In this document: one piece after another, positions 3,997 to 36,677 of the stretch
How positions within the stretch are numbered: position 1 is the stretch's first letter
Layout: each line of letters starts with the position of its first letter
Sequence record: NC_101838.1
DNA length: 64,000 nucleotides
Source of the DNA: a phage
Strand: one strand, 5' to 3'
Notes under the pieces: generated by a model
Told to the model about the DNA's origin: nothing
Seen by the model: only the letters and a program-made list of their open reading frames with translations
The model's database searches: none
Translations under genes and position numbers: made by a program

Positions 3997-5037
3997 ATGT
4001 CAAAACCTAGTTTTCCATTAGAGATTTGGGCAGAGGAGGATCAGGTTCTGCCTAACACCCACAGACAGAACAGGCTACGCCCGATTGATGATTTGTGGAG
4101 AAAAGGTTGGGATCTTGGTCAAAAGCCCTCATGTGAAGAACTTAACTATATTTTCAATATGCTCGGAACTTGGGCAAAATACATTGCTGACGAGCAGATC
4201 CCCGCTCAAGAAGGCCGTTATCTGGTACGTGATAATAACTTGAGTGATCTTTTGAACATTCCTGTTGCCCGTAGAAACCTTGGGATTATTACTAAGGAAG
4301 AGGCAGACGCCAGGTATGTAAAAGTTACAGGTGATACAATGACAGGCCCATTGGGTTTGCAACGTATCAACTTTAAAGCTGCAGAGACAGATAAGGCTTG
4401 GATAGAGACAACTATTGGCCCAGATAAGACAACTCTCGACTTTGGGTTAAGTGATAATACTGGTTCGTTTGATGATGGTGGTACATCTACGGTAGATGCG
4501 TTTCGTTGGAGATTCCAGCCAACTCAGCCGGATATTAATCCAGAGTTCACTTTGATGTACCTTAACGCGATCACGGCTAACCGTGCGCTGTTGAAAGTGG
4601 TAGGCAATGTTGAAGTTGTCGATAACATGAGGTGCAATAACCTTACTATCAGCAATACAGCAACATTCACCAACTGTAATGTGGCTAGTCAGTTGACGGC
4701 TGGGTCAGTATATGTTAATGGTGGTGCAAGTTGTGACAGTATGGTTGTAAGAAGCCAGCACTGTGTTGTCGGTAACAGAAATGTGGTGCGCTCCGTGAAT
4801 GGAGTGACGGCTAACGGTAACGGTGATGTAACGATCACTATCCCGCAGACAGGTGTGCAAGACATCAGAATCGGTGCAAGACTTGTGGACGGCGTTTCTG
4901 AGTCTCCAATCCGCAACGGCTACGTTGTCACAGGCTGGCATTTCGGTGACAAAAAAGAGATGCGTGGTTCAACTTACTGGGCAGGACCTTTACAAAAACT
5001 TGTAAACGGTCAATGGATCACTGTTAATTATGCATAG
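3997..5037 (+). CDS. tail fiber protein, P2 gpH-like C-terminal domain
   Basis: C-terminus GWHF...LQKLVNGQWITVNYA resembles the P2 gpH tip (GWHF...IQKYINGTWYNV); conserved N-terminal PLEIWA...GW motif shared with the 6049 paralog; AGGAGA SD. Confidence 0.7.
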   Translation: MSKPSFPLEIWAEEDQVLPNTHRQNRLRPIDDLWRKGWDLGQKPSCEELNYIFNMLGTWAKYIADEQIPAQEGRYLVRDNNLSDLLNIPVARRNLGIITKEEADARYVKVTGDTMTGPLGLQRINFKAAETDKAWIETTIGPDKTTLDFGLSDNTGSFDDGGTSTVDAFRWRFQPTQPDINPEFTLMYLNAITANRALLKVVGNVEVVDNMRCNNLTISNTATFTNCNVASQLTAGSVYVNGGASCDSMVVRSQHCVVGNRNVVRSVNGVTANGNGDVTITIPQTGVQDIRIGARLVDGVSESPIRNGYVVTGWHFGDKKEMRGSTYWAGPLQKLVNGQWITVNYA

Positions 5038-5051
5038 ATCGGAGGACTAGC

Positions 5052-5636
5052 ATGAAAATACTCCAAGAGTTTAAACTTTACCAACCGGGATCTGGCGAAT
5101 ACCACGCCAACAAGGAAACCAAAGAGCTGACCCCTCAAGAGGTTGAGGACTACACCGCATACACTGGGTATTTTTTACGTAATGATGATGGCGATTGGTA
5201 TGTGCAGTCAAGAACATTACGACAAGAAAATCCGGGTTGTATCTTCCTACTTGTTGACGAAAAGGGAATTCTTAAGACATCTACAGAAGAACCTGATGCC
5301 TTATGGCCTGCTCCAGGTCTTCGTGTGGTTATCGCCAAAAAAGAAGAGGTACCAGAAAACATTATGCTTCACCACGACGCTTTGCGTTTAGTTGGTGATG
5401 AATTTGTCACAGACAATGAATTCTTTGTTCAACAGGCAGAGGGTGTCATAGAGACAGAACTTGCTTGGGCTACTGCTAGAATTGGTGCCTATCAAGACAT
5501 GATTGACCTTGAATATGATCTTACTGATGACCAGAAACGTAACATCAGAGATTTGAAAATGTACAGGGTAAAACTTCTTGAAATAGATACATCTAAAGCC
5601 CCTGACATTTTCTTCCCGGAGCGACCTACCCTCTAA
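5052..5636 (+). CDS. hypothetical protein, possible tail fiber assembly chaperone by position
   Basis: Immediately downstream of tail fiber gene; GGAGGA SD; no motif recognised. Confidence 0.4.
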   Translation: MKILQEFKLYQPGSGEYHANKETKELTPQEVEDYTAYTGYFLRNDDGDWYVQSRTLRQENPGCIFLLVDEKGILKTSTEEPDALWPAPGLRVVIAKKEEVPENIMLHHDALRLVGDEFVTDNEFFVQQAEGVIETELAWATARIGAYQDMIDLEYDLTDDQKRNIRDLKMYRVKLLEIDTSKAPDIFFPERPTL

Positions 5637-5647
5637 GAGGAGGTGTT

Positions 5648-5962
5648 GTGGAGTTGGATTTGGCGGCATTGTACGGTATCTGCATGGGTACCGTTGTCCC
5701 GATCTGTGTATGGGCTTTCAACCAGTGGCACACCAAATGGAAAGGCATTTCCAAGAGGTTGGATGAGCTGGAGAAAGACCTCATCTTAGTGAAAAACAGT
5801 ATGGTTACAAAAGATAAACTTGATTCCGTTATAGAGACCCGGTTAAGCAAGCTAGAGGCCGATATTAACGACCTTAAGCAGGATGTCAGGACAGATGTCT
5901 CCGGCATCAGAGCCGATGTACAAAAGATTTTGCACATGCTCGTAGAGCATAGTAAAAGGTAA
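5648..5962 (+). CDS. small membrane-anchored coiled-coil protein
   Basis: N-terminal hydrophobic segment then heptad-like charged region; GTG start after GAGGAGG. Confidence 0.4.
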   Translation: MELDLAALYGICMGTVVPICVWAFNQWHTKWKGISKRLDELEKDLILVKNSMVTKDKLDSVIETRLSKLEADINDLKQDVRTDVSGIRADVQKILHMLVEHSKR

Positions 5963-6048
5963 ACAAAGGTCAGAACGGAAAGGACTCCGTTCTTGCATTT
6001 TGTTCCCTAAAGTGTTAAAATAGTCCTAAGGAATTTTCTCAGGAGAAC

Positions 6049-9176: not shown

Positions 9177-12100
9177 ATGCTTCCAATCCCTTTGCTAAAA
9201 CTTGGTCGTCATTTCCTCGATAAGAGGGGTGGAATTAAGGAACTTGCTGTTCTGTCATACCCAATAGACAACAGTGATGGTACAAGCAACACAGTATCCT
9301 ATGTAAATAGCTTAGCTATACTTTTTGATGATGGTCAGCTTAATATTACTGGCTATAATAGGTTCGGAGAGTGTCGGACTGGAGATCTTGATACAATAAA
9401 CTATCCTAATGAGGCAGCTTAGAACGTAGACCATGTTTGGAGAGCTGACCGTGCATTTGTAATCCGCACATTCGATAATAAATTTTTCTATATTGGTTGC
9501 ACAGCTGGTCTTATCGGATCGGAGGCAGCAGGTGGAAACGATGTTTGTGTCAGAGAGTGGACACCTTTGCCGGAACAGATCGTAACAGGGTTGCATTTGG
9601 ACACCCATCCTGAGAGACTTGTTGAAGTAATGGGTGGCGTAAACAATACAGTGTGGGTAATTGCTGCACCAGAGGCTGATGGTATGCTTCACCTGTACGG
9701 CTCTGGCAATAATACTTACGGCTCTCTTCATGTTGACAAAAGTCAACACGCTACTCCAGTTAAGATCGGTGAAACATCTGAAAGTCCAGAGACAGGTCCT
9801 TGGAAAAATCCAAGAATTAATTGTGAAGTTCATGACAACTCGGTTATTTTTGGTGGTCCTAACGGATTCTGGATTGCAGGTTACGATTTCTTAAGAAATA
9901 ACAGCAAAAACACACTAGTTTATCCAGCCGAGCATGTGACTCTTGACCAGTTTAAAGGCATCCCGGTGGGCGAGACATGGAAAGGGTTCATGTGTGGACC
10001 TAATGGTGCAATTATAGCCACAGAAAGGATGCACAAACCTGATGACCAACAGCTTGTTAACGTATTCTACGGGCAAGACGTCTGGGGAGATGACACATGG
10101 CGTTCCTTAAATATCACCTACACCCATGAGGTGATAATGGCTCGTGGATACGGCACAAGTGGCATTTTCTTCAATAATGGCACCAAACAGTATCGTGGCT
10201 TCTCTCGCAATCTGTGCAATGATATTGGTGCACAATCTGCAAACAACAGTCCTAGGGCTAATTTTATTCACTATCAGGCTCTGGCTACGGCTAAATACGT
10301 CGAGCAACGGATGCCAGTAAGCTGGACAGAAAGTGTTTATTTCCAGGGTATCCACAGAGAAGGTTTCTTAGGGACCTTTACTGTTGTTAATGGCAAACTT
10401 TGGTGGTCAGGCATCCCAAGGGGAAGTTTTGCAGGCTCTAATAACCTGTTTGGCGGCAGACTTAATAGTCAGGGGTTCACAGAGGTTCCTGAGAATTGGT
10501 ATAAAAATGTCCCAGTAGACAGTTGGGGCGTTGATGATATTTTCGACGTTAATGGTGTTAGTAGTGTTAGCAATATCTACATTGGTGACACGGTCAAGAT
10601 GAAATTGAAGCCTCAGCCAGAGGGGGCTACGTTCATTATTGACAAGATTGAGTTGGTAAATGCTGCAGGTACGGTTGTTACAGATGCAAATTACCAATTC
10701 TCCACCAACTGGAACCACGGTGGGGCCAACGAAGTTGTTGTTACCCAGTATAACAGAAATGTTAACAGACGTGGCCTGTACTCTGTAAAAATAACCTATC
10801 ATGACAAGCATGGCACAGGCAGAACCCATACGACAAGAACTTTGAACTGGAACACCATAGTTCCTGCGTATCCGTCCAACGGCAAGTGGCATACTGTCGG
10901 TAGAAACAAACAGTTCCATGTCAACGATACTGTATACTTCGGGCTTAACGCAGCTCAACCTGTTGTAGAAGGCGATACATCGTATATGGTACGACTCCAT
11001 AGAATGGATGCCGGGTCTGTAACCTACGATGTGACTCAAGAGATCTACGATCAGAGACGTACCACGTATGACAATGTTGTGAAAACACAAGCCTTGTGGG
11101 AGTTCAACCCTAACGGCAGAGGCGGTAAAATGTTGCAGGTCAACGAGCAAAACGGAACATCGTTGACTGTCCATGAACATCCAGATCCTTGGCCTGATCC
11201 TGGAAAACCTAACTCTGGGGCTCGTACACTGAAAATTGTCAGCCATGATGCAGGATATTTCGGAATACGCTGGGAAGCTACAGTAAGATATGTCGACGGG
11301 ACAACAAACAACATAGGGATTACACTTGGCGGCACTAGTGAAGATAACTCGCTGAAAATTGCCTACACGCCCAGAGGTATCTCTATTGATAATATGGATG
11401 TTGTTCGCAATGGTTACGGCGATGTGAATGTCAAAGTTACTCTTGGCGAACATCTTGGTGGGGAAAGGATCATCATGTATGCCTTTGATCATGATCCACG
11501 CACCAATGGAACTTATGCAAATCAGGCATGGAGTTACCTGATAAATGCACCTGAGCCGAATACTAAAGAGTTCTACTATGGTATGAAGCGAGATGTGTGC
11601 AAGAAAACAGGAACACATGACTGGATTGCTATCTGCGTTAAAGATGAGCGCACAGCTTGGGATGAACCTGTTAACAGATGGTTCATAGGTATTCCTACCA
11701 GAAGTGATAAGTATGTCGCAGAATATATTGTATGCATGGGTGGTACCAACCTGAACATGTGTTGGAACGAGGATGCAAACAAATACTCTGATTATGACTA
11801 TATGAGGGATTACTCTTGTAATCAGTGGTTTAACCAATCAACAGGATACCCTCCACGTCAGGCGAGAGTAAACCCTGCAATCTTCACAGATACGCAGGTT
11901 TTCTTGACAAAACAGGCCAACGAGGTTCAGACCTTCAAGAATAAATACGATCCTAACAAGTGGTTCTACAACTGTTACGGCGCATTTTTCTGGGGACCTG
12001 GTGAGTTACCTGGTGGAGGATCTTGCTTGAATGAGGCAACTTACGCCAGTGACTACATCATGGGGCAGGTCAAGAAGTATAAGATAATCCCCGGTCCTGA

Positions 12101-14804
12101 GACTCTGGGCAATGCCGTTGACCCTTATATCATCATGACTGCACTGAGATCAAACATGGACGGGACATCCATGTCTATGCAAATTCCGGTAACAAACGGG
12201 TACAAACGTGTTGTGATGATCATTAAGTGCGACTTAATAGGTAAACAAGTTCTTGCAGAAAACGGGACATCCACACATCCTTTTGAGATTGCTCTGCACT
12301 ATCAGTTTGCTGACTCGCCTTTTGCAGGTGATAAGAGAATATCTGATACAGATACACAGCGTTGTAAGAAAGTATTGTTGGGTGCAGGTTGGTGGTGGTA
12401 TGAGTTTGATTTAACAGACAAATTCACCGACACATCTAAAGTTGTAACAGGACTTCGTCTAGACCTTGGCGAGAACATGCACAAAGCTGTTTGTGATGGC
12501 ACCTATGGTGACCCTACAATATACCTAAAATATATTTCTTTTGAGCATCCGGAAGATGTTGTCTATGGTCCAAAACTGAGATTGTTTGGCAGTTGGATTG
12601 CAAAAGATAGGGTAGGCATGGGTAAGAAGGTAAGAGGGTTCTTGGTTGATGCAGGAACAGAAGACATGCTGGTTAATGCAGTATGGCCTGAATTACCTGG
12701 GACTCAGTGGGACAACTCAGCCAAATCTATAAACTGGTTTAACATTCATAGGGCCATGTGGACCACTAACTGCTACTTGTGGAGAGAGCTTAACGATCAG
12801 GCCTTTGGATTCAGCGATGGTAGAAGGATGGCGATCATTTGCTGGACAACACTGCAAAGATGTTATGACCATGACTATGAGATTGGGGGCAGGGCATGGA
12901 AAAATATCAGAGATAGAATCATAACCAATTTTGCAGACGACAACGGTGGTGGAGCACATAACTTTGGCACAAGCCGACTCATCCATTTGAACGGATCCTC
13001 AGCCTACAAGAAAGAAGGTTACTCTGGGTCTATGATCGAGTGGGGTCTGGTGAAAGATGCTCGTGTATTGATGGGCCAGCAACTTGCTGCTGCAATAGGT
13101 CCTAGTGCAGTGCAGTCTGCTAAACCAGCGTGGTTCGATATCCCATTATGGTCCTCTGGAACACCAGGGGCTGCTGCAATCAACCCTACCACTGGGGATC
13201 TGGAAATCTCCTGGGAAGACCTGAAGCAGGTCGGTGGCTGGGATAAGACCGGGTACCAGGTGCAGTGGTGGAGGGCTGACGGATCTTTAGCCGCTGATGA
13301 GTTTGTTAAGGACAATTTCTACACTATGTCCTCTGCAAAAGCACAGGAATTGTTCGGTCAGGCAACTCCGTCAACGATCACCATGTCTATGTGCTGTAAA
13401 GACAACAGGACTGGAGCTTTGGGGCCAAGGGTTGCTAAAGTTTTCTCAGGTATTAAATGGAATCTACCTGTCCAAAGTATTTCATGGAAGCAAATAGGTG
13501 ATAACAAGCTGCTGGTTACCCCTGCCTGTCAGTTCAACGCAACTCTTAACGTTGATCCTGCTGTTGCGGCAAACTCAGCTAAAGCTTCTGACTTCTCTGT
13601 GTCTAACACTGCTATGGCAGATGTGAGGAAGATTGACACGCTGAACGCCAGAATTACCTGTAAAAACACTTATGGCACATTCCAAATCATCAACAACTTC
13701 ACAGATGCTGATTCTAAGGTAGTGAGGACAGCAAGCCAGACTCTGAGTTTAGGAACTCTGGCCTATGCGGCCCTGATCACCGAGCAGTCGGCAACACTCC
13801 AAGGAGGTGGTGTAGGCAAGTCCATTGCAACACCTGTGTGGAAGCCAAATGAGTGGGTTGTGTTTGATTTGACTGTGGACTTCTCCAGCGATAATAACTG
13901 GACATGGGTAAGGAATTGTTTGTCACAATTGATGGGCGGTCCAAGCTCCGTTAGTGATAGTCACGACTCTACTGACCCGAGTGTGTTCCAGGTAGGTAAA
14001 ACTCACCCAGAGACTGGAGAAACGTTGCCTGACAGGAAGTATGCGTTGGTTTGCATCTCTTACGGGAAGGCAGATGTCACATTCTCAGGGACACACACTT
14101 ATAACGGAACTTACAACTTCTCAAGGAAGTATAGTCTCAAAGCAGGGAACATTATAGACGAGGTCGGTGTGCTGTATAATCCGGGCAACGGCATAGGGAT
14201 TGTGGGCGGTAAACTGCAGATGCAGGAACCTTCTATCACCCCTTCCAACGTATCCGGGATTAGAAAGACTTGGGAAAGTAGTAATACCAACATTGCAACA
14301 GTGGATGCCACCACAGGGCTGGTAACATTTAAAGCTACTGGGAATGTCACCATAAAGTTTGTAGTTAGAGATGATGCAGGCCGCAAAACGTCTTCAACAT
14401 CGTTTACTGTCAGACAGATGGCACCTCAGTGGTTTATTTGGGAAGGAAATCCTCTTGACGGGGCTTACCCTAGACCTGCAGGAACGTCCAATATGAGGGT
14501 CTTTACCGGTCCGGTCATGAACAATCCGACCACAACCACCAACCCTACATTTTTTGGTGCTTACATACCTGAAATTATTGGCCTACCAAGGAACCAGATA
14601 CAACTGCTTTTCGGAGCAGGTGTTGATGGTCTAGCCACTTTTGGGTACAGTGACAACATTGATGCAGCCAGAAGCTCGGGTTGGATTGGATTTAAGTTTC
14701 AGTGGAACCCTGGTGGTAGAACATTAGGTGTTGCAAGCATAGGTGTTATGCTACCTGGTAACCAGCAATACCATCTCGAAGCTTATACAAACTTCCCTAG
14801 TTAA
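9177..14804 (+). CDS. giant RCC1-like-repeat adhesin / host-range protein, interrupted by in-frame TAG at 9420-9422
   Basis: ATG at 9177 with GGAG SD; ORFs 9177..9422 and 9567..14804 are in the same frame with a single TAG and no other stop between; RCC1-like Gly repeats on both sides; ORF-track start at 9567 is TTG without SD. Confidence 0.5.
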
Positions 14805-29488: not shown

Positions 29489-30858
29489 TGGAAAAAGGGC
29501 AGTATGATGTAGGCACAGATGCTGCCCTCGTTGCAATCATGAGCGGTGAGAATGTCTTCGTTTCAGGACCCGCAGGTTGTGGGAAGACGTACCTCATCAA
29601 CATGATCCAGTCAATGTATGGAGACTCTTGCATAACGGTTGCCCCGACAGGGGTTGCCGCTTTAAACGTTAATGGAGCAACAGCACACCGAACCTTCGAT
29701 CTTGCAGCAGGTGTGAGCATGGAGTCAGACTGGACTGCAATAAGGGCAAAAACAGCAAAGCCTTTGAAAAGCAAGGCATTTACCATCCTAATTATCGATG
29801 AAATCTCTATGATCCGTGCTGATAAGTTTATAGAGATGGATAGGAAACTCCGCTTCCTTCGAAAAAATGACAAACCTTTCGGAGGCATACAGGTCATATT
29901 GTTTGGCGATTTTTACCAGGCACCTCCTGTTGTCTCTTCTATGGAGAAGGAGGCCTACTTCAACTTCTACCACACAGACCTATGTTGCTATACCGAATCT
30001 TGGAAAGAGCTGGACCTTCACAACATAGCCCTAATAGACCAGTTCCGACAGGAGTCTATTCGATTTGCCACAATGCTCAACTGTGTTCGTGAGGGTCGTC
30101 GCATAAAAGAGGTTGTAGCAGAACTTAATGCTCGCTGTTACAAAGGCGGTGTACCAACAGACGCTCTCACAATTTGCGCCACCAACAAACAAGCAGAGGA
30201 AGTGAACAGAAGGTTCTATGATGCCATCAACGCCCCAGAGAAGGTATACACTGGTGAAATGAAGGGTAAGTTTCCCTCCACCCTGCCAGTTGAGCAGGAG
30301 ATGAAGTTGAAAATTGGCATGAAAGTTATGATAACCGCCAACGATGTTGACCCGACGCACAAAGTACCTTATTATGTTAACGGAACACGTGCCACAATTG
30401 TTAAATTTAAGAACAAGGCGGTGGTGGTAGAGCTTGAAGATGGAACACAGGTTGACATAGAGCAGAGGTTGTGGGAAAATAACGAGTATAAGCCATCTCA
30501 GAGATACAACATTGCAGAAAGGAAGATGGAGAAGTTTATAGAGAGGGTAGTGATTGGGTCATACAGGCAACTTCCTCTGAAATCTGGGTATGCCGTAACA
30601 TCTCATAAAAGTCAAGGACTTACGCTAGATTGTTACAACCTGGACCTTGGAAAGAACGGAGCTTTCTCTCCTGGGATGACGTATGTTGCTTTGAGTCGGG
30701 TTAAGACAATACAAGGAATAAACTTGTTGCGTCCACTAAGAGAAGTTGACATTATTGTTGACCCGCGAGTCGTAGAGTTTTACAATACAACATTCCCTGA
30801 CTTAGACAAAATTGTCAGGAAAGATTTTGAAACCAGAGCTGAAGAGGGGGACGTATGA
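29488..30858 (+). CDS. Dda/Pif1-like SF1B DNA helicase
   Basis: Walker A GPAGCGKT, Walker B IIDEISM, motif GGIQVILFGDFYQ.PPV. Confidence 0.7.
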   Translation: MEKGQYDVGTDAALVAIMSGENVFVSGPAGCGKTYLINMIQSMYGDSCITVAPTGVAALNVNGATAHRTFDLAAGVSMESDWTAIRAKTAKPLKSKAFTILIIDEISMIRADKFIEMDRKLRFLRKNDKPFGGIQVILFGDFYQAPPVVSSMEKEAYFNFYHTDLCCYTESWKELDLHNIALIDQFRQESIRFATMLNCVREGRRIKEVVAELNARCYKGGVPTDALTICATNKQAEEVNRRFYDAINAPEKVYTGEMKGKFPSTLPVEQEMKLKIGMKVMITANDVDPTHKVPYYVNGTRATIVKFKNKAVVVELEDGTQVDIEQRLWENNEYKPSQRYNIAERKMEKFIERVVIGSYRQLPLKSGYAVTSHKSQGLTLDCYNLDLGKNGAFSPGMTYVALSRVKTIQGINLLRPLREVDIIVDPRVVEFYNTTFPDLDKIVRKDFETRAEEGDV

Positions 30859-31196
30859 GTTTGTGGAGAAATATAGTTAACTACGTGTGTGGCAATCCAA
30901 CTCCTGAAGAGAAGGATGTTGTGATTCACGATTTTACTAAAAGATCTCGTGAAAAAGATCTACTGCTAACAAAGGTGACTGATAAAGATCCTGCAGTAGG
31001 GGACTGGGCAGGTTTTGCGTTCACATCGGACAAATACACCTTTAACAAAGGTGACTATCTTGTTGTGGATTTTAACGAGGACATCGAGGGTGCTGAACCT
31101 TACTATCAGACCCTTATTGTTGCAGGGTGTGTTGATCTCTCTGCAGGCATGCACAGTTTGATTCTTTTTGAGCTTGACTCTGAAGACCTTCAGTAG
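30855..31196 (+). CDS. hypothetical protein (113 aa)
   Basis: ORF track; ATGA overlap with helicase gene. Confidence 0.45.
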   Translation: MSLWRNIVNYVCGNPTPEEKDVVIHDFTKRSREKDLLLTKVTDKDPAVGDWAGFAFTSDKYTFNKGDYLVVDFNEDIEGAEPYYQTLIVAGCVDLSAGMHSLILFELDSEDLQ

Positions 31197-31258
31197 TAAG
31201 ATGTGAGTATAAAGGGGAGGCACTCCTCCCCACAAAAAACTAGGGAGAGCACCAAACG

Positions 31259-32584
31259 ATGAGCAAAACCAAATTAGAACTAACCTGGATAGGTAAAAAC
31301 GAGCGCAAAAAGTTAGAGCCGCACATTTTGTTAGAAGATTCTAGCAAGTCTTACCACAGCCAGAAAGTGACCGAAAACGATATTTTTGATAATAAACTGA
31401 TTTTTGGAGATAACTTATTAGCATTGAAGGCGCTAGAGCAAGAGTATGCAGGCAAAGTGAAGTGTGTTTACATAGACCCACCATTCAATACTGGAAGGGC
31501 TTTTGAGCACTACGATGATAGCCTAGAGCATTCCATTTGGCTGGGCTTAATGAGGGATAGGTTAGAAATAATTCGTAATCTTCTAAGTGATGATGGGGTA
31601 ATATTCGTTCACTTAGATGATTGCGAAATGGCGTATTTAAAAGTTTTGATGGACGAGATTTTTGGTCGTGCAAATCAGTTAAATACCATATCGATGACCA
31701 CAAATTCCCCTTCGGGATTTAAGGCAACAGGAGCCACAGTTTTCTCCACAGCAAACTTTTTGCTCGTATATGCAAAAGATCGCACCCAGAAACCGCTTAA
31801 CAAAATCTATATACCTAAAGGGTATGATACAGGATATAACAAATACCTATTAAACCCGGATGACCATTATAAAAATTGGACGTGGTGCGGTATTGCCGAT
31901 GCGTTTGCAAAGGCCAATGGCTATAAAGATGCAAAAGAAGCCAAGAAAAAACTGCCTGACACATTCGATGATGAATTAGCACAATTCGCAATTGATAATG
32001 CAGAACGTGTATTTCAATCTGTTGCAATTGGTGGTGGTGCTAAAATAAAGAGAAAAGAAACTATCGAGAAGTCAAAGAAAGATAGGGATAAGGTCTATGT
32101 ACATCCAAATGAGGATATTGAAGGATTTTATATCGCAAATGGTAGGCAAATGGTCTTTTACTCCAATAGGCTTTTGGAAATTGACGGGAAAATGCAACCT
32201 GCGGAACTAATAACTGATGTTTGGACAGACATTAGTTGGAATGGAATAGCAAATGAAGGCGGCGTTAGTTTCAAAAATGGGAAAAAACCAGAAGCGCTTT
32301 TGAAGCGGATTTTCGAAATGTGTACGCGAGAAGGTGATTTGGTATTGGATTCATTTGGTGGTTCGGGAACTACTGCTGCTGTAGCTCACAAGATGAAAAG
32401 ACGTTGGATCTCAATCGAGCTAGGTGATCATTGTCATACCCATATTATTCCGCGCTTGGAAAAAGTGATCGATGGTGAAGATCAAGGTGGTATTTCTAAG
32501 TCTGTAAACTGGCAAGGTGGTGGTGGTTTCCGTTATTACAAACTTACCCCGACCTTAATTGCGAAAGATAAGTCTGATCAATAA
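31259..32584 (+). CDS. DNA methyltransferase, N6-adenine/N4-cytosine class (Mod-like, orphan)
   Basis: Catalytic motif IDPPFN and SAM motif DSFGGSGTT; no adjacent restriction subunit. Confidence 0.7.
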   Translation: MSKTKLELTWIGKNERKKLEPHILLEDSSKSYHSQKVTENDIFDNKLIFGDNLLALKALEQEYAGKVKCVYIDPPFNTGRAFEHYDDSLEHSIWLGLMRDRLEIIRNLLSDDGVIFVHLDDCEMAYLKVLMDEIFGRANQLNTISMTTNSPSGFKATGATVFSTANFLLVYAKDRTQKPLNKIYIPKGYDTGYNKYLLNPDDHYKNWTWCGIADAFAKANGYKDAKEAKKKLPDTFDDELAQFAIDNAERVFQSVAIGGGAKIKRKETIEKSKKDRDKVYVHPNEDIEGFYIANGRQMVFYSNRLLEIDGKMQPAELITDVWTDISWNGIANEGGVSFKNGKKPEALLKRIFEMCTREGDLVLDSFGGSGTTAAVAHKMKRRWISIELGDHCHTHIIPRLEKVIDGEDQGGISKSVNWQGGGGFRYYKLTPTLIAKDKSDQ

Positions 32585-32597
32585 AGAGTACAATCAA

Positions 32598-32903
32598 ATG
32601 ATGAAACGTTATAAACCATACACTTTTGAAATCGATTTCGAACTTGACGATATGTTCACTGTGGAAGCTCAGGCAGTTGTCCAGTTGCCAGACCCAGAGT
32701 GCCGTGATTCTGATGTTGACTATTATGGATTTAGACAGATCACTGATGTACATGTTTACCACAACGGCGAAGAGATTGACTTCCACCAACTGCCAAACGC
32801 TGTGCGCCACTCAATTTACAAACGTGCAGCCCGTGAACTAGAGTCCTATCTGGATGCAGCTACAACAGCGGCTGCATTTGCTGAAGAAGTAGGAGGTTTC
32901 TGA
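32598..32903 (+). CDS. hypothetical protein (101 aa)
   Basis: First ATG in ORF 32559..32903. Confidence 0.4.
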   Translation: MMKRYKPYTFEIDFELDDMFTVEAQAVVQLPDPECRDSDVDYYGFRQITDVHVYHNGEEIDFHQLPNAVRHSIYKRAARELESYLDAATTAAAFAEEVGGF

Positions 32904-33298
32904 TGATTACAGGTGTGAAGGTTATCCAATACCACTTAACCAAATTGGAAGATGCTGAAAAAGAGCTTGCAGAAGTTCTGAACAGCGGGTATACTTTTCT
33001 ATCATGCGCCTGCTCAGACACCTACGTTGTGTGGACACTTATCCGGAAGGAAGAGCCTGCAGGGATCTTGGTGCCAAATCCTAAGATTATTAGTGAGGTG
33101 GATGACTACTCTCAGGACGGCCTGCCAGAAGGTTGGGAAGTATGGGAAGGTGGTGAAAACCCTGCACCAGGTAAGTGGGTAAAATACAAACTACGTAGCG
33201 GTGCACAGTACGCTGACTACTCTGATGACCTAGACTGGAGTCATTCTTCACCAGGATCATCTGCAAGTTCATATGATATCGTAGCTTTTCAGGAATAA
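32903..33298 (+). CDS. hypothetical protein (131 aa)
   Basis: ORF track; GGAGG SD. Confidence 0.45.
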   Translation: MITGVKVIQYHLTKLEDAEKELAEVLNSGYTFLSCACSDTYVVWTLIRKEEPAGILVPNPKIISEVDDYSQDGLPEGWEVWEGGENPAPGKWVKYKLRSGAQYADYSDDLDWSHSSPGSSASSYDIVAFQE

Positions 33299-33310
33299 GG
33301 AGAAGAAGGT

Positions 33311-33793
33311 ATGTCAGATTTTATGTGGAAAGTAGGTTACGCAACCCCTGAAATGTGTGAGGCTTGCTTTGTTAAAATAGGCCGCGAGGATATCGACAAA
33401 GTGATCCTTAAGTTTCGTGATGTGGCTGTGATCGGCAACCGAGTGCTTAAGCACTTAAAGAATCTGAAGCTCACCAAAAAGAAGTTCTTCGGACTTTTCG
33501 AAGAGAAGGTTGATGCTTGGACTCATTGCATTCAGGAAGCCAAATCCCACTACAGTGCCATCGTTACTCCAGAACGGGTAGCAAAGATGGAAGGATTCAT
33601 CAACAGCACAGAATTTGAGTGCCTAAAGGCTGCCCTTGATAGCTATCCAAAGTGCCTCAAACACCTTGACAAGTATGCAGAAAAGGATGGTGAAATGTAT
33701 CTCACCCTGGACGCATATTATGAGATGCAAGAAATTTTAAATTTAGATTTGACATTGGTATCCACCGAGTATACAATAGGTATCCGGGTTTAA
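33311..33793 (+). CDS. hypothetical protein (160 aa)
   Basis: ORF track; AGGAGAAG SD. Confidence 0.45.
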   Translation: MSDFMWKVGYATPEMCEACFVKIGREDIDKVILKFRDVAVIGNRVLKHLKNLKLTKKKFFGLFEEKVDAWTHCIQEAKSHYSAIVTPERVAKMEGFINSTEFECLKAALDSYPKCLKHLDKYAEKDGEMYLTLDAYYEMQEILNLDLTLVSTEYTIGIRV

Positions 33794-33798
33794 CACTA

Positions 33799-33827
33799 GG
33801 CCCTGCCCGAAAGGGTGGGGCTTTTTG
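33799..33827 (+). terminator. intrinsic terminator (copy 1 of a repeated hairpin)
   Basis: GCCCTGCCC-GAAA-GGGTGGGGC with GNRA loop then TTTTT; identical hairpin at 43934. Confidence 0.55.
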
Positions 33828-33844
33828 CATTAGGAGACAGCAAA

Positions 33845-34609
33845 TTGAAATTTATCTACAAAGAACACTACCACAAAGGTGTTGTGTGGAGTCTATTTGA
33901 CGGGTCTGGTGGTGCAGTCATTGACTGGGCAAAAGCTGGGTACCTGTGCCTGTGCTTTAATGCAGAAGGTGCTGATCACGGCAGTTATGCAGAGGTTATA
34001 ACCGATCATCCCAACATTCACTATGTGGATTATTGGATTGACCCATGGTTCCCTCAGGAAACTTTTTGCATGTACCCAGCTCCAGACTTTATTCTTGCAT
34101 TTCCTCCGTGCACGCATTTAGCGGTATCAGGTGCTGCACATTTTAAGAAAAAGCTGGCTAAGGACCCCATGATCCAAATTAATGCTGTAAAGGATGCTCG
34201 GGTTGCGGAAGAGCTGGGAGAGATTTACGATTGCCCGTGGCATGTAGAGAATCCTGTGGGTGTTATGTCCACACTGTGGCGTAAACCTGATTACCGTTTT
34301 CATCCTTCTGACTATGGTGGGTATTTACCGGAGGATGATGTAAACCCTTGGTTTCCTGAATTTATAGCTCCACGTGATGCCTATCCAAAAATAACTTGCG
34401 GCTGGATAGGTAATGGATTTATAATCCCGCCCACAAAACCTGTCCCGCAAATAGTTGACGCGGTTAGCGGGTATTCCATGCAACACGCCAAGCTGGGTGG
34501 GAAGAGTGCAAGAACGAAGATGATCCGAAGCCTCACACCACGTGGCTGGGCAAAAGCTGTATTCTTAGCAAACGAGCCTGTAGTAAGGAGCAGAATTAAT
34601 GGGAAGTAA
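33845..34609 (+). CDS. DNA (cytosine-5)-methyltransferase-like protein
   Basis: Motif I LFDGSGG, motif IV FPPCTHLAVSGA (PCQ-like with catalytic Cys), motif VI VENPVG; probable TTG start 7 nt after AGGAG (ORF-track start 33815 lies in the terminator stem). Confidence 0.5.
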   Translation: MKFIYKEHYHKGVVWSLFDGSGGAVIDWAKAGYLCLCFNAEGADHGSYAEVITDHPNIHYVDYWIDPWFPQETFCMYPAPDFILAFPPCTHLAVSGAAHFKKKLAKDPMIQINAVKDARVAEELGEIYDCPWHVENPVGVMSTLWRKPDYRFHPSDYGGYLPEDDVNPWFPEFIAPRDAYPKITCGWIGNGFIIPPTKPVPQIVDAVSGYSMQHAKLGGKSARTKMIRSLTPRGWAKAVFLANEPVVRSRINGK

Positions 34610-36677
34610 ATTTATGGCATCTGCATACAACCGTTTCGGTGAGCCAAACCCGAAAGCAACTAAGTATAAAAGCGGGGGAAGTGTGAAACGAGACTATCGT
34701 GATGAAAAAGAAGTTGAAACTGTAGAGACTGTTTTAGAAAATACTAAAATTGTCCCTGTCCCACAACAAAATATCGGTCTGATGGCTGCACAATATTTTG
34801 GTGTGCGATCAGCATTGTCCCAAGAAGACGGTGTGACAGTCACTGCAACATATTTCCCATATTACGACCGCTACGGAAATCTGTCCGGTTTCAAAAAGCG
34901 CGACTGGACGATTCCTAAAGAGCAAAGGGGCCATTTCTCCGTTGTTGGCATAGTAAAGGCTAACTCTCAGATGTTTGGTCAAAAGCTGTGTGCATCTTCC
35001 AACAACCGTAAGCAGATTAACGTTTGTGAGGGAGAAGGTGATGTTATTGCAGCATGGCAGGCTGCATATCAGATACAAGTAAAAGGGATTCTCACCAACG
35101 CTAAAGCCCCGGCAAAGGTGAAGCAGTGGGCTAAAGAGGTCCAGGACGGGATCGACGCAGTTATCAACGGTGGTGATCTGGCAGGAAAACCCTGCCTGCC
35201 TTTTGTTGGAATTAACTGTGGATGTGCAAACGCAGTAGATACTTTTGCAAACAATGAGAAGTTTATCCGCAGCTATGGAACAGTTGTGCTGGCAATGGAT
35301 AACGATGCAGCTAACGAGGTAGAGAAGCAAAAACACGTCATTAAAGGTGTTGAGGCCACGCACAATATCGCAGCATTTTTGATGGCTGATAACGTTTACC
35401 ACGTAGAATACCCTGGTGAAGTAAATGACCCTGACGGGGTAAAAGATATCCGTGACATGCTGAAGGCTAAAAAGCTGGAAGATATTGTCAACATGTTCCG
35501 GCACCCTGTTAAATATGTGCCTGATGCTGTGTCGGATTTAGAAGACTTCTCTATCGAGTCTTTGCGGAAAAAGACTTCCAACGGGGTAGATATCAGCGCA
35601 GAGTTCCCAAAACTGCAAAAAATGCTAAAAGGCTTGCACAAAGGGACACTCGTAATGCTTACAGGGCCATCAGGGGGCGGTAAAACAACTGTAGCTAAAA
35701 AACTGGAACATTGTATTGCAAGATACCTAATGGACCCGACATGCCCGAAGGCTGATGACTATGAAGAGGATGATCGTCTATGTATGATCCATCTTGAGGA
35801 GGACCCAGAGGAAGCAATTAACTCCTTGTATGCAAACCAGTTAGGGTTTGATGTTAAAGAGTTTGTTGAAGATCCTAGCCAGTTTTTAACTGATCAAGAA
35901 CACGCAGAGATTCACCAATCATGGGCAAAAGCTGGAAAAATCAAAGTGTTCAAACATTTCGGATCTATTCCGGTGGACGAGTTGATTACCAAGCTTAAGC
36001 AAATGGTTTGCCTGTACCATTGCCGTTATATTGTGCTGGATCACCTGTCCATGGTAATTTCAGGGCTTAATGTTAAGGATGAGCGAAAAGAACTGGACAT
36101 GGCTATGACTCAGCTGGCTGCGTTTTGTAAGCAGTTTAACGTGTTTATCTTGGTGATCGCTCACCTCAAACGTACAGAGATTGTGCCTCCTAAGGACAAG
36201 GATGGTAACCCGTTACCTTTCTGGTATCCTGTGCGAAAAGAGAATTTGCGAGGATCGGCGGGGCTTGAACAGTTGAGTTGGGTAGTCATAGGTGTCGAGG
36301 CCGAAGAAATGGTGGATCGTTCTCGTGGACGTGTCCGTCTGGTAGGTCTTAAAAACCGTCCAGCAAAAACTCTAGGTATTGCTGACACTTTGGTTATGGA
36401 CCCGCACACAGGTAAGTTCCATGATGCCAGTAATTGGTACTGGGACAAAGAAATGCAAATGTTTACAGACGGAGAAGGTGGGGAGGTTGTTTGGAGACCT
36501 CAGGCTATGTTTGAGGATCAGGAGCATGCAGTTGTAGAAACACCTATGGGCAAGGTTGTGGCTGATAAGGTTGTAACTCCTACTGTTAAGCCTGTTGACA
36601 CGCAGGAAGACCTCCAGTACGATGATCCATCCTCTGACCCGGTCCCTGGTTTTGAGGATGATGAAACGCCTTTTTAA
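34599..36677 (+). CDS. DNA primase-helicase (TOPRIM + DnaB/gp4-like helicase)
   Basis: TOPRIM VCEGEGD; Walker A GPSGGGKTT, Walker B YIVLDHL; AAGGAG SD. Confidence 0.75.
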   Translation: MGSKFMASAYNRFGEPNPKATKYKSGGSVKRDYRDEKEVETVETVLENTKIVPVPQQNIGLMAAQYFGVRSALSQEDGVTVTATYFPYYDRYGNLSGFKKRDWTIPKEQRGHFSVVGIVKANSQMFGQKLCASSNNRKQINVCEGEGDVIAAWQAAYQIQVKGILTNAKAPAKVKQWAKEVQDGIDAVINGGDLAGKPCLPFVGINCGCANAVDTFANNEKFIRSYGTVVLAMDNDAANEVEKQKHVIKGVEATHNIAAFLMADNVYHVEYPGEVNDPDGVKDIRDMLKAKKLEDIVNMFRHPVKYVPDAVSDLEDFSIESLRKKTSNGVDISAEFPKLQKMLKGLHKGTLVMLTGPSGGGKTTVAKKLEHCIARYLMDPTCPKADDYEEDDRLCMIHLEEDPEEAINSLYANQLGFDVKEFVEDPSQFLTDQEHAEIHQSWAKAGKIKVFKHFGSIPVDELITKLKQMVCLYHCRYIVLDHLSMVISGLNVKDERKELDMAMTQLAAFCKQFNVFILVIAHLKRTEIVPPKDKDGNPLPFWYPVRKENLRGSAGLEQLSWVVIGVEAEEMVDRSRGRVRLVGLKNRPAKTLGIADTLVMDPHTGKFHDASNWYWDKEMQMFTDGEGGEVVWRPQAMFEDQEHAVVETPMGKVVADKVVTPTVKPVDTQEDLQYDDPSSDPVPGFEDDETPF

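Follow-up and report, generated by a model that had tools for sequence, protein, structure and literature searches.

The stretch of phage DNA considered here, 64,000 nucleotides of the record NC_101838.1 (the window, analysed over this full length), carries two genes for putative DNA methyltransferases of different classes, both on the + strand and lying in a 3.4-kb stretch within the replication module. One (the N6 gene) is predicted to encode an amino-methyltransferase related to the Mod subunits of type III restriction systems, and the other (the C5 gene) a compact Dcm-like C5-cytosine methyltransferase. A preliminary description of the window had pointed to both as orphan enzymes, and had seen a hint of altered chemistry in the Thr that follows the catalytic Cys of the second. 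The two open reading frames (ORFs) are indeed present at the positions given there, the motifs DPPF, FDGSGG, FPPCTH, and ENPVG are found in the ORFs to which they had been assigned, and the division into two classes holds, with a beta-class, type III Mod-like amino-methyltransferase on one side and a C5-cytosine methyltransferase fold on the other. The main features are the following, in window positions.

31240..31258, + strand: left border of the captured mod cassette, taking in the ribosome-binding region (phage/E. coli/metagenome-assembled genome alignment; empty site of phage LL12)
31259..32584, + strand: N6 (possibly N4) DNA methyltransferase, 441 amino acids, a Mod without the C-terminal domain (PF01555, PADLOC MTase_III, and PDB Mod matches)
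31475..31486, + strand: motif IV DPPF, catalytic, residues 73-76, N-terminal to motif I
32354..32374, + strand: motif I FGGSGTT, S-adenosylmethionine (SAM) binding, residues 366-372 (sequence, PDB Mod matches)
32568..32603, + strand: right junction, with an out-of-frame remnant of Mod codons ~443-454 (…INKEYN…) (DNA alignment, tblastn)
33845..34609, + strand: compact Dcm-like C5-cytosine DNA methyltransferase, 254 amino acids, TTG start, phrog_757 (PHROG, homology)
33896..33913, + strand: motif I FDGSGG (aligned to SLFDG of DNMT3A)
34100..34117, + strand: motif IV FPPCTH with the catalytic Cys89 (aligned to PCN of DNMT3A, PCQ of M.HhaI with its Cys81, and C82 of K42 Dcm)
34247..34261, + strand: motif VI ENPVG with Glu135 (aligned to ENV of M.HhaI and DNMT3A, and to E128 of K42 Dcm)

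As to the phage itself, bases 31000-35000 match 117 phage records (megablast), the top matches, at 99.6%, being the Escherichia phages DrSchubert and JeffSchatz of the BASEL collection, which are also 97-98% identical to the full window, and the window is that of a Vequintavirus (rV5-like) myovirus infecting E. coli. The records of these two phages already label the genes in question as "putative N6 adenine methyltransferase" and "Dcm-like C5 cytosine methyltransferase," and the pairing of an N6A with a C5 methylase in Vequintavirinae has been published, with HHpred support for the C5 enzyme (PMC7344957, PMC11370258). The observation as originally written is thus confirmed, yet ordinary, because the annotation of the two genes and their pairing in the subfamily were already on record, and the PCT motif is, as detailed below, a trait of the protein family. 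What appears to be new is the host-derived origin of the N6 gene, which would add one instance to a known type of counter-defence, the capture of a host methylase by a phage. In the literature, which was covered incompletely, we found no report of this origin or of the domain-precise truncation of the gene.

The product of ORF 31259-32584 matches PF01555 (N6_N4_Mtase) at E 3.4e-42, with the match split by an insert of ~110 amino acids, and PADLOC MTase_III at E 1.4e-204, over profile positions 2-444 of 575 only, and its closest PDB matches are type III Mod subunits (H. pylori, E 1e-28; EcoP15I, E 2e-24). The motif DPPF stands ahead of FGGSGTT, with the recognition domain between the two, which is the order of the beta class, and the Asp in DPPF favours N6-adenine as the target. 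Type III systems making N4-methylcytosine also exist, according to work cited within PMC11069274. Two attributes of a Mod subunit are missing. The Res-contacting C-terminal domain is absent, the host homologue running ~127 residues further, and neither the window nor the phage annotation has an adjacent res gene, while one is present beside the bacterial homologues; the phage gene thus derives from a Mod but does not belong to a type III system. A tblastn search of the 64-kb window with the cognate E. coli Res, SNF2, Abi, and Mod C-terminal domain returned nothing better than E 0.16, and no restriction partner is annotated over 50 kb of JeffSchatz, in agreement with the earlier claim that the phage carries none. 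Beyond Vequintavirus, phage homologues are limited to Campylobacter myophages and to the N-terminal part of P1 Mod. The Mod-like gene of genuine Campylobacter myophages is only 37-42% identical, and at least 16 records titled "Campylobacter phage" (GenBank MG0656xx, host C. jejuni), which are 96-97% identical to the window over 31000-35000, look like mislabelled or contaminating coliphages.

A far closer relative of the N6 gene resides in the host species. Of 5,426 complete E. coli genomes, 24 have a chromosomal gene that shares 94.9% DNA identity with nucleotides 1-1318 of the 1,326-nt phage gene, and the phage protein is identical to the Mod of E. coli 2014C-3011 (WP_024226319.1, 568 amino acids) at 423 of 439 positions (96%), over Mod residues 2-440. 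About 4 of the substitutions, most of them conservative, fall in what is approximately the recognition domain (residues ~180-340, with limits inferred rather than mapped). In strain 2014C-3011 this Mod is part of an island situated beside tRNA-Sec (selC) and integrase remnants, in which a MADS1-type helix-turn-helix (HTH) gene is followed by SNF2, Abi_2, a hypothetical protein, Mod, and a ResIII helicase-nuclease of 912 amino acids; the SNF2 protein is DrmD_b-like, at 697 bits, short of the cut-off of 950 set by NCBIfam. Scanning bacterial genomes produced 108 relatives of the N6 protein, and the ~19 loci inspected have a Mod of 538-665 amino acids in a recurring order of SNF2 (~950-990 amino acids), one or two variable genes, Mod, and a protein of ~900-950 amino acids. 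One example is a locus from a gammaproteobacterial metagenome-assembled genome (L008), encoding a DrmD-like SNF2, AbiD/Abi_2, AIPR/AbiU, an MTase_III of 572 amino acids that covers the full profile, and REase_III/ResIII. The N6 gene is, by all appearances, a captured and truncated Mod of a type III-like host restriction system. The label of orphan is right in cis and incomplete beyond it: the enzyme is a host type III Mod in truncated form, and its cognate restriction partner, Res, exists in some strains of the host species.

The islands have features of their own. The position between SNF2 and Mod behaves as a slot for variable cargo, holding Abi_2 and AIPR in L008 (3147-5943), Abi_2 and a hypothetical protein in the locus L087 (7354-8943), and an OLD-like AAA_15 ATPase in the locus L012, which also has a DUF3584 protein 3' of Res (4331-6004, 10486-13323). 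The small HTH gene ahead of the SNF2-Mod-Res operons is MADS1 by its NCBI label, and the SNF2-Mod-Res system as a whole appears to fit no named defence system. In a tblastn comparison with the phage N6 protein, the marine Catenovulum agarivorans DS-2 (locus L007) is 95% identical and L008 92% identical (404 of 439 residues when the Mod of L008 is compared directly), suggesting that the entire island seems to move between distant Gammaproteobacteria.

The borders of the captured piece can be followed at both ends. Similarity to the E. coli mod gene starts ~15-20 nt 5' of the phage ATG, and at the other end an 11-nt deletion right after AAAGATAAGT in the phage gene shifts the frame, so that the protein ends in …KDKSDQ-stop; ~25 nt of out-of-frame Mod sequence follow the phage stop, and then comes the next phage ORF. 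The small ORF 3' of the N6 gene was considered as a candidate for the missing C-terminal domain of Mod and rejected, as only the 12-residue out-of-frame remnant is common. In a weak, collinear local alignment the truncation maps near residue 521 of EcoP15I Mod, past the end of the methyltransferase domain (residue 516) and ahead of the C-terminal domain (residues 539-644; PMC4490356). Dimerisation of EcoP15I Mod involves its N-terminal and methyltransferase domains, the dimer is able to methylate by itself, and the C-terminal domain of one Mod protomer makes extensive contacts with Res (PMC4490356). As the cut falls between the methyltransferase and the C-terminal domains, the phage Mod therefore keeps the parts for dimerisation, recognition, and methylation, without the part that recruits Res. 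The FV3-type phages (~10 records) have another right junction, …KDKF|DSEEDLE-stop, beyond which ~95 nt of phage sequence are duplicated in diverged form. In two phage lineages the protein thus stops at one and the same "KDK" boundary, reached along different sequence paths, which could reflect either independent truncations or repeated exchange with host alleles. The FV3 duplicate (positions 4290-4400 of the locus L088 against 31160-31260 of the window) consists of the end of the upstream ORF, the hairpin, and the ribosome-binding site, placed to the right of the mod cassette, and this right-hand copy, ACACAAGATAAGGAGAACACCGAATAATGA, resembles the 5' untranslated region of the E. coli mod, ACACAAGATAAGAGCACAGAAATGATGA.

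The mod cassette is found in 85 of 116 related phage records. The flanks are 95-97% identical in ~30 phages (LL12, navn, SophiaRose, and others) from which exactly ~1,344 nt are absent, and the empty site of LL12 is intact, with the hairpin and the ribosome-binding site directly followed, as in the other cassette-less phages, by the ATG of the small ORF of 100 amino acids (32601..32903 in the window). The N6 gene is an accessory cassette of ~1.34 kb, with a presence/absence distribution, carried by about three quarters of the sequenced relatives. Between the window and FV3, the synonymous divergence (dS) of the N6 gene is 0.36, with a ratio of nonsynonymous to synonymous divergence (dN/dS) of 0.06, each phage copy stands at dS ~0.20 from the E. 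coli mod gene, and the flanking phage genes range from 0.19 to 0.79. Since the value for the cassette falls within the range of its flanks, a single old capture with later rearrangement accounts for the data as well as two captures do, and one old capture, with a slowly evolving host copy near the midpoint, fits the dS values as well as repeated exchange with the host.

The C5 gene has a different history. It is present in ~116 of 117 related phages, with dS of 0.385 and dN/dS of 0.02 between the window and FV3, and no close DNA relatives, hence no near-identical host copies, are found among the 5,426 E. coli genomes. The protein family is widespread in phages: homologues number >3,500 among clusters at 90% identity, with 1,027 representatives in a separate library at 50% identity, and the family occurs in 1,504 phage records with Escherichia, Klebsiella, Salmonella, and other hosts. 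The match to phrog_757 (E 4.3e-87) extends over residues 10-261, in the numbering of the longer, 264-residue ORF starting at GTG-33815, against profile positions 3-226 of 247, and all the signatures of that family are present (PPCT[D/H/N], ENP, RDAY-K-T, and R-S-x-T-P-x-G). The start in use is most likely TTG at 33845, with an AGGAGA Shine-Dalgarno sequence at 33832-33837, seven bases upstream; the GTG-33815 version is unlikely in use, its start lying inside a GC-rich hairpin. At the other end, the last 11 nt of the gene overlap the start of the primase/helicase gene. Two candidate control elements precede the gene.

33749..33777, + strand: sigma-70-like promoter, TTGACA, 17 nt, TACAAT, 11/12 positions (consensus match only)
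33798..33823, + strand: GC-rich hairpin with a T-run, terminator-like, between the 160-residue ORF and the Dcm-like gene (sequence)

The succession of the promoter match, the hairpin within 20 nt of it, and the Shine-Dalgarno sequence with TTG (33749-33844) may represent either an attenuator or a 5' hairpin with a stabilising role.

The C5 protein has a class I methyltransferase fold with the topology of the C5-methyltransferases, and is closest to DNMT3. Profile comparison of 33845..34609 (hhalign) aligned it with DNMT3A over motifs I-IV at E 2.3e-4, with Cys89 on the cysteine of PCN, in line with the class proposed for it in the preliminary description. With M.HhaI only motifs IV-VI were aligned, at E 0.12, and a forced global alignment was unreliable past motif VI (the DNMT3A sequence used is 100% identical to PDB 5YX2, and that of M.HhaI was likewise checked). 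A sequence search of the PDB with the protein alone was marginal, and a profile of 61 family sequences retrieved M.HaeIII at E 0.036 and DNMT2 at E 0.15. Only 2 of the 61 family members reach E 1e-4 with PF00145, and the protein belongs to the DNA C5-methyltransferase superfamily by fold and motifs, while standing outside the Pfam family as modelled. In the alignment of these 61 members, Cys89 is present in 59, and Glu, Asn, and Pro of ENP in 60, 61, and 61, respectively, with Cys89, Glu135, and Lys182 each kept in at least 59. Motif I, FDGSGG in the C5 protein, is reduced across the family to F-D-x-S/T-G, like FDGIATG of DNMT3A, and at the motif II position the protein has Asn39 where 51 of the 61 have Asp, the active homologue of phages K42 and KarlJaspers also having Asn. 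The same alignment points to a candidate motif VIII, Y-x-K-x-T-C-L-W-x-G-N, and a candidate motif X, I-R-S-x-T-P-R-G-F-A-x-A-V.

The Thr in PCT had been described as non-canonical, which is true against the textbook PCQ only, as Thr is the rule inside the protein's own family. The position after the Cys is Thr in 53, Asp in 3, and Glu in 3 sequences of the 61-member alignment, and PPCT is present in 117 of the 120 closest homologues, the other 3 having PPCD, so that Thr is the family norm and not a substitution in the window protein. Of 150 more distant representatives, 87 showed the motif pattern, and here too Thr prevails over the less frequent Asp and Glu. The further proposal that this Thr signals altered chemistry is not supported, since PPCT[D/H/N] is the consensus across a family that counts thousands of proteins. 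DNMT3A, an undisputed 5-methylcytosine (5mC) enzyme, has Asn at the aligned position. A homologue with the same spacing of Cys, Glu, and Lys has been reported to produce 5mC: in a preprint on the retron Ec86, the 711-bp dcm gene of phage K42, which is 95% identical to KarlJaspers/Bas06, was identified as the trigger of the retron, and its expression raised 5mC in multicopy single-stranded DNA (msDNA) as measured by liquid chromatography-mass spectrometry, while the C82A/E128A/K175A/K176A mutant did not (10.1101/2023.08.16.553469). The window protein is 54% identical to the KarlJaspers protein bas06_0055 over the full length (E 1e-87), with C82, E128, and K175 of K42 aligned to Cys89, Glu135, and Lys182.

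A lead in the opposite direction, that the enzyme adds a group other than methyl (for example, carboxymethyl from carboxy-SAM, Cx-SAM) or acts on a substrate other than DNA, comes from CmoX, a phage C5-carboxymethyltransferase that uses Cx-SAM and in which Arg replaces Asn304 of M.HhaI (PMC12783734). In the C5 family, "IRSLTP" contains Arg228, which is nearly invariant, with Ser229 next to it. When the canonical G-N-x-V-P is matched with R-[S/N]-x-T-P, Ser229 falls at the position of Asn304, and some members have R-N-A-T-P; when the register is taken from G-R-S of DNMT3A, Arg228 would match the position of Arg350 in CmoX, and yet DNMT3A uses SAM. Either residue may thus occupy the position, as the profile alignments did not fix the register. 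Of the contigs with CmoX candidates, 5,615 encode CmoX, 4,257 also a phage cmoA, and 2,251 a ligase (PMC12783734). No CmoX gene was seen within the 50 kb of Synechococcus phage S-B43 looked at. No cmoA is annotated in JeffSchatz, in which no direct search for it was made. Given the 5mC result for the K42 homologue, the presence of FPPC rather than SPPC, and the lack of an annotated cmoA, altered chemistry is highly improbable, and we conclude that the C5 gene most probably encodes a functional, core 5mC DNA methyltransferase of the phage lineage.

The neighbourhood of the two genes is one of replication functions: rIIA/rIIB, a Dda/PIF1-like helicase, an ORF of 113 amino acids, the N6 methyltransferase gene, three small ORFs, the Dcm-like gene, the primase/helicase, and the DNA polymerase follow in this order. 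The three small ORFs between the methyltransferase genes are listed here.

32601..32903, + strand: small phage ORF, 100 amino acids, phrog_4240, function unknown (PHROG match)
32903..33298, + strand: small phage ORF, 131 amino acids, phrog_11995, function unknown (PHROG match)
33311..33793, + strand: small phage ORF, 160 amino acids, phrog_12900, function unknown (PHROG match)

The ORFs 32601-32903, 30855-31196, and 32903-33298 have weak PHROG matches to "DNA methyltransferase" (phrog_1573, phrog_2060) as well as to "DNA ligase" (phrog_10936, phrog_10384), all at E 1e-4 to 1e-6; their best families are phrog_4240, 11869, and 11995, with no known function. As to word usage over positions 1-64000, a number of GC-rich 6-bp palindromes are depleted relative to the Markov expectation (CGATCG, 0 versus 9.7; TGGCCA, 1 versus 9.6; GGCGCC, 0 versus 5.6). 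The words CCWGG (148 sites, observed/expected ratio 0.89) and GATC (318 sites, ratio 1.0) are not avoided in the window, and these statistics are uninformative on the specificity of the methylases.

The reading that we favour, with a probability of about 70%, is that two stand-alone methyltransferases of different origin, a captured Mod and a DNMT3-like C5 enzyme, pre-modify progeny DNA, and thereby allow the phage to escape particular host restriction systems. The dimer of the truncated Mod would methylate the asymmetric site that the host system itself targets, probably at N6 of adenine, and would not be able to recruit Res, so progeny virions would look "self" to strains with the cognate island, being pre-protected whatever host released them. 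In the C5 enzyme, Cys89 of PPCT would serve as the nucleophile and Glu135 of ENP would protonate N3, with SAM as the methyl donor for the formation of 5mC. The general view of orphan phage methylases is that they counter restriction by protecting DNA for export (PMC12707154), and the self-protective role suggested in the preliminary description fits the strong purifying selection on both genes. As to the path by which the N6 enzyme arose, a "Res-blind" Mod, captured by rV5-like phages from the island and selected to lose exactly the Res-docking C-terminal domain, is a tentative proposal to which we would give a little less than an even chance.

A number of points weigh against pre-modification as the role of the two enzymes. 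That a Mod without its C-terminal domain is active as a methylase is something we infer, and the placement of its truncation on EcoP15I comes from a weak local alignment, of 6.1 bits. The C5 protein has no match to PF00145 or to any other Pfam family even at E 0.1, or to NCBIfam or PADLOC, and no motif IX or target-recognition domain is recognisable in it, the profile alignments stopping at motif VI. The evidence from K42 is that of a preprint and of bulk 5mC in a dcm+ host, CCWGG having been assumed from E. coli Dcm rather than mapped. Methylation data on rV5-like virions were not found in the literature, of which our coverage was incomplete. Finally, Vequintavirinae were described as "exceptionally susceptible" to EcoKI, EcoCFT_I, EcoRI, EcoRV, EcoP1_I, and EcoCFT_II (BASEL, PMC8594841). 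Any protection is therefore narrow, and neither enzyme protects broadly; this susceptibility does not contradict pre-protection, because the cognate system is outside the six tested.

The alternatives share some of this evidence. The truncated Mod could act mainly as a dominant-negative decoy, forming mixed dimers with the host Mod that cannot dock Res and so disarm the host complex. The dimerisation domains known from EcoP15I (N-terminal and methyltransferase) are kept while the Res-contacting domain is gone, and 96% identity to the host Mod would permit heterodimers; a pure decoy, however, would not need DPPF, FGGSG, and the whole recognition domain conserved at dN/dS 0.06, and this conservation is why we rate the decoy, an unlikely explanation, below the enzyme. 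In EcoP15I, moreover, only one of the Mod protomers contacts Res through its C-terminal domain (PMC4490356), so that binding of Res by a mixed dimer would still be possible, and the N6 gene is placed among replication genes and not among immediate-early genes. It would be equally surprising if the methyltransferases served the phage's own biology (replication, packaging, or regulation of expression), with little connection to restriction, even though both genes are inside the replication module, the Dcm-like gene overlapping the start of the primase/helicase gene and being a core gene with dN/dS of 0.02, and even though the Vequintavirinae are broadly sensitive to restriction. The N6 cassette is dispensable, being absent from ~30 phages that are otherwise 95-97% identical, its near-identity to the Mod of a host restriction system points to a role related to defence, and orphan phage methylases are usually seen as anti-restriction devices (PMC12707154).

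Least credible of all is that one or both genes are inactive remnants, the N6 gene being a broken Mod pseudogene and the C5 protein being too small for DNA recognition. A frameshifting deletion of 11 nt does truncate the former, and the latter is without a recognisable target-recognition domain or motif IX. Pseudogenes, though, would not be expected to show purifying selection at dN/dS of 0.06 and 0.02 with dS of ~0.36-0.39, nor intact catalytic motifs in both proteins, nor the same domain-boundary truncation in two lineages with different 3' junctions, and the K42 homologue of the C5 protein, of the same size, is active.

The proposed origin of the N6 gene links an accessory gene of a phage to a specific and still uncharacterised host defence island. 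From it follows a directly testable prediction of host range for rV5-like phages, a group often considered for phage therapy and biocontrol. It also offers a clean natural example of what looks like a domain-precise truncation of a captured methylase. If the loss of the Res-docking domain was indeed selected, the phage enzyme writes the host system's own mark and never arms the system, and the presence or absence of the cassette should predict which rV5-like phages plate on island-carrying strains. The C5 family, for its part, is known as a trigger of the retron Eco1/Ec86, and the C5 enzyme may thus be a liability on retron-bearing hosts.

With the type III Mods (EcoP15I, EcoP1I, and the H. 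pylori Mod) the N6 protein shares DPPF before FxGxG, an inserted recognition domain, and an N-terminal helical region, and it differs from them in being without the ~127 C-terminal residues that form the Res-docking domain and without a res gene in the phage. Its nearest counterpart, the Mod of 2014C-3011, is 96% identical in protein and 95% in DNA over residues 1-440, the recognition domain included; unlike the phage copy, it continues to 568 amino acids and stands between SNF2, with its Abi cargo, and the 912-residue ResIII helicase-nuclease. Capture of this kind is not without precedent. The lactococcal phage phi50 reportedly captured a methylase domain of LlaI. Exchange of type III Mod sequences between Campylobacter phages and their hosts has been reported for phage CPt10 (PMC11069274), which, like the rV5-like phage, is a virulent phage with a piece of a host restriction-modification methylase gene gained by recombination. 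Compared to CPt10 and phi50, the present case is one in which the donor family, both junctions, the empty site, the C-terminal loss, and the selection can all be read from sequence alone.

Among the known systems close to the C5 protein is the Dcm of K42/KarlJaspers, with which it shares phrog_757, the spacing of Cys, the Glu of ENP, and the motif VIII-like Lys, as well as FPPCT and CFN…ADHG. The differences are those of a Drexlerviridae siphovirus versus a Vequintavirus myovirus, of 18 residues in length, the window protein being the longer, and of K176, replaced by Ile183. CmoX (PDB 8YF3), in contrast, has 372 residues, a full recognition domain, and SPPC where the window protein has FPPC. 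Among the cellular enzymes, DNMT3A shares with the C5 family SLFDG in motif I, PC-x-DL in motif IV, and the R-S pair in a motif X-like segment, while the C5 protein is just 13-15% identical to DNMT3A/3B, with a TM-score of ~0.5, and has no motif IX and no regulatory domains. Unlike DNMT3A/3B, the C5 family has a conserved segment of 45 residues (WRKPD…F-P…YGGY…RDAY-K-T) between motifs VI and VIII.

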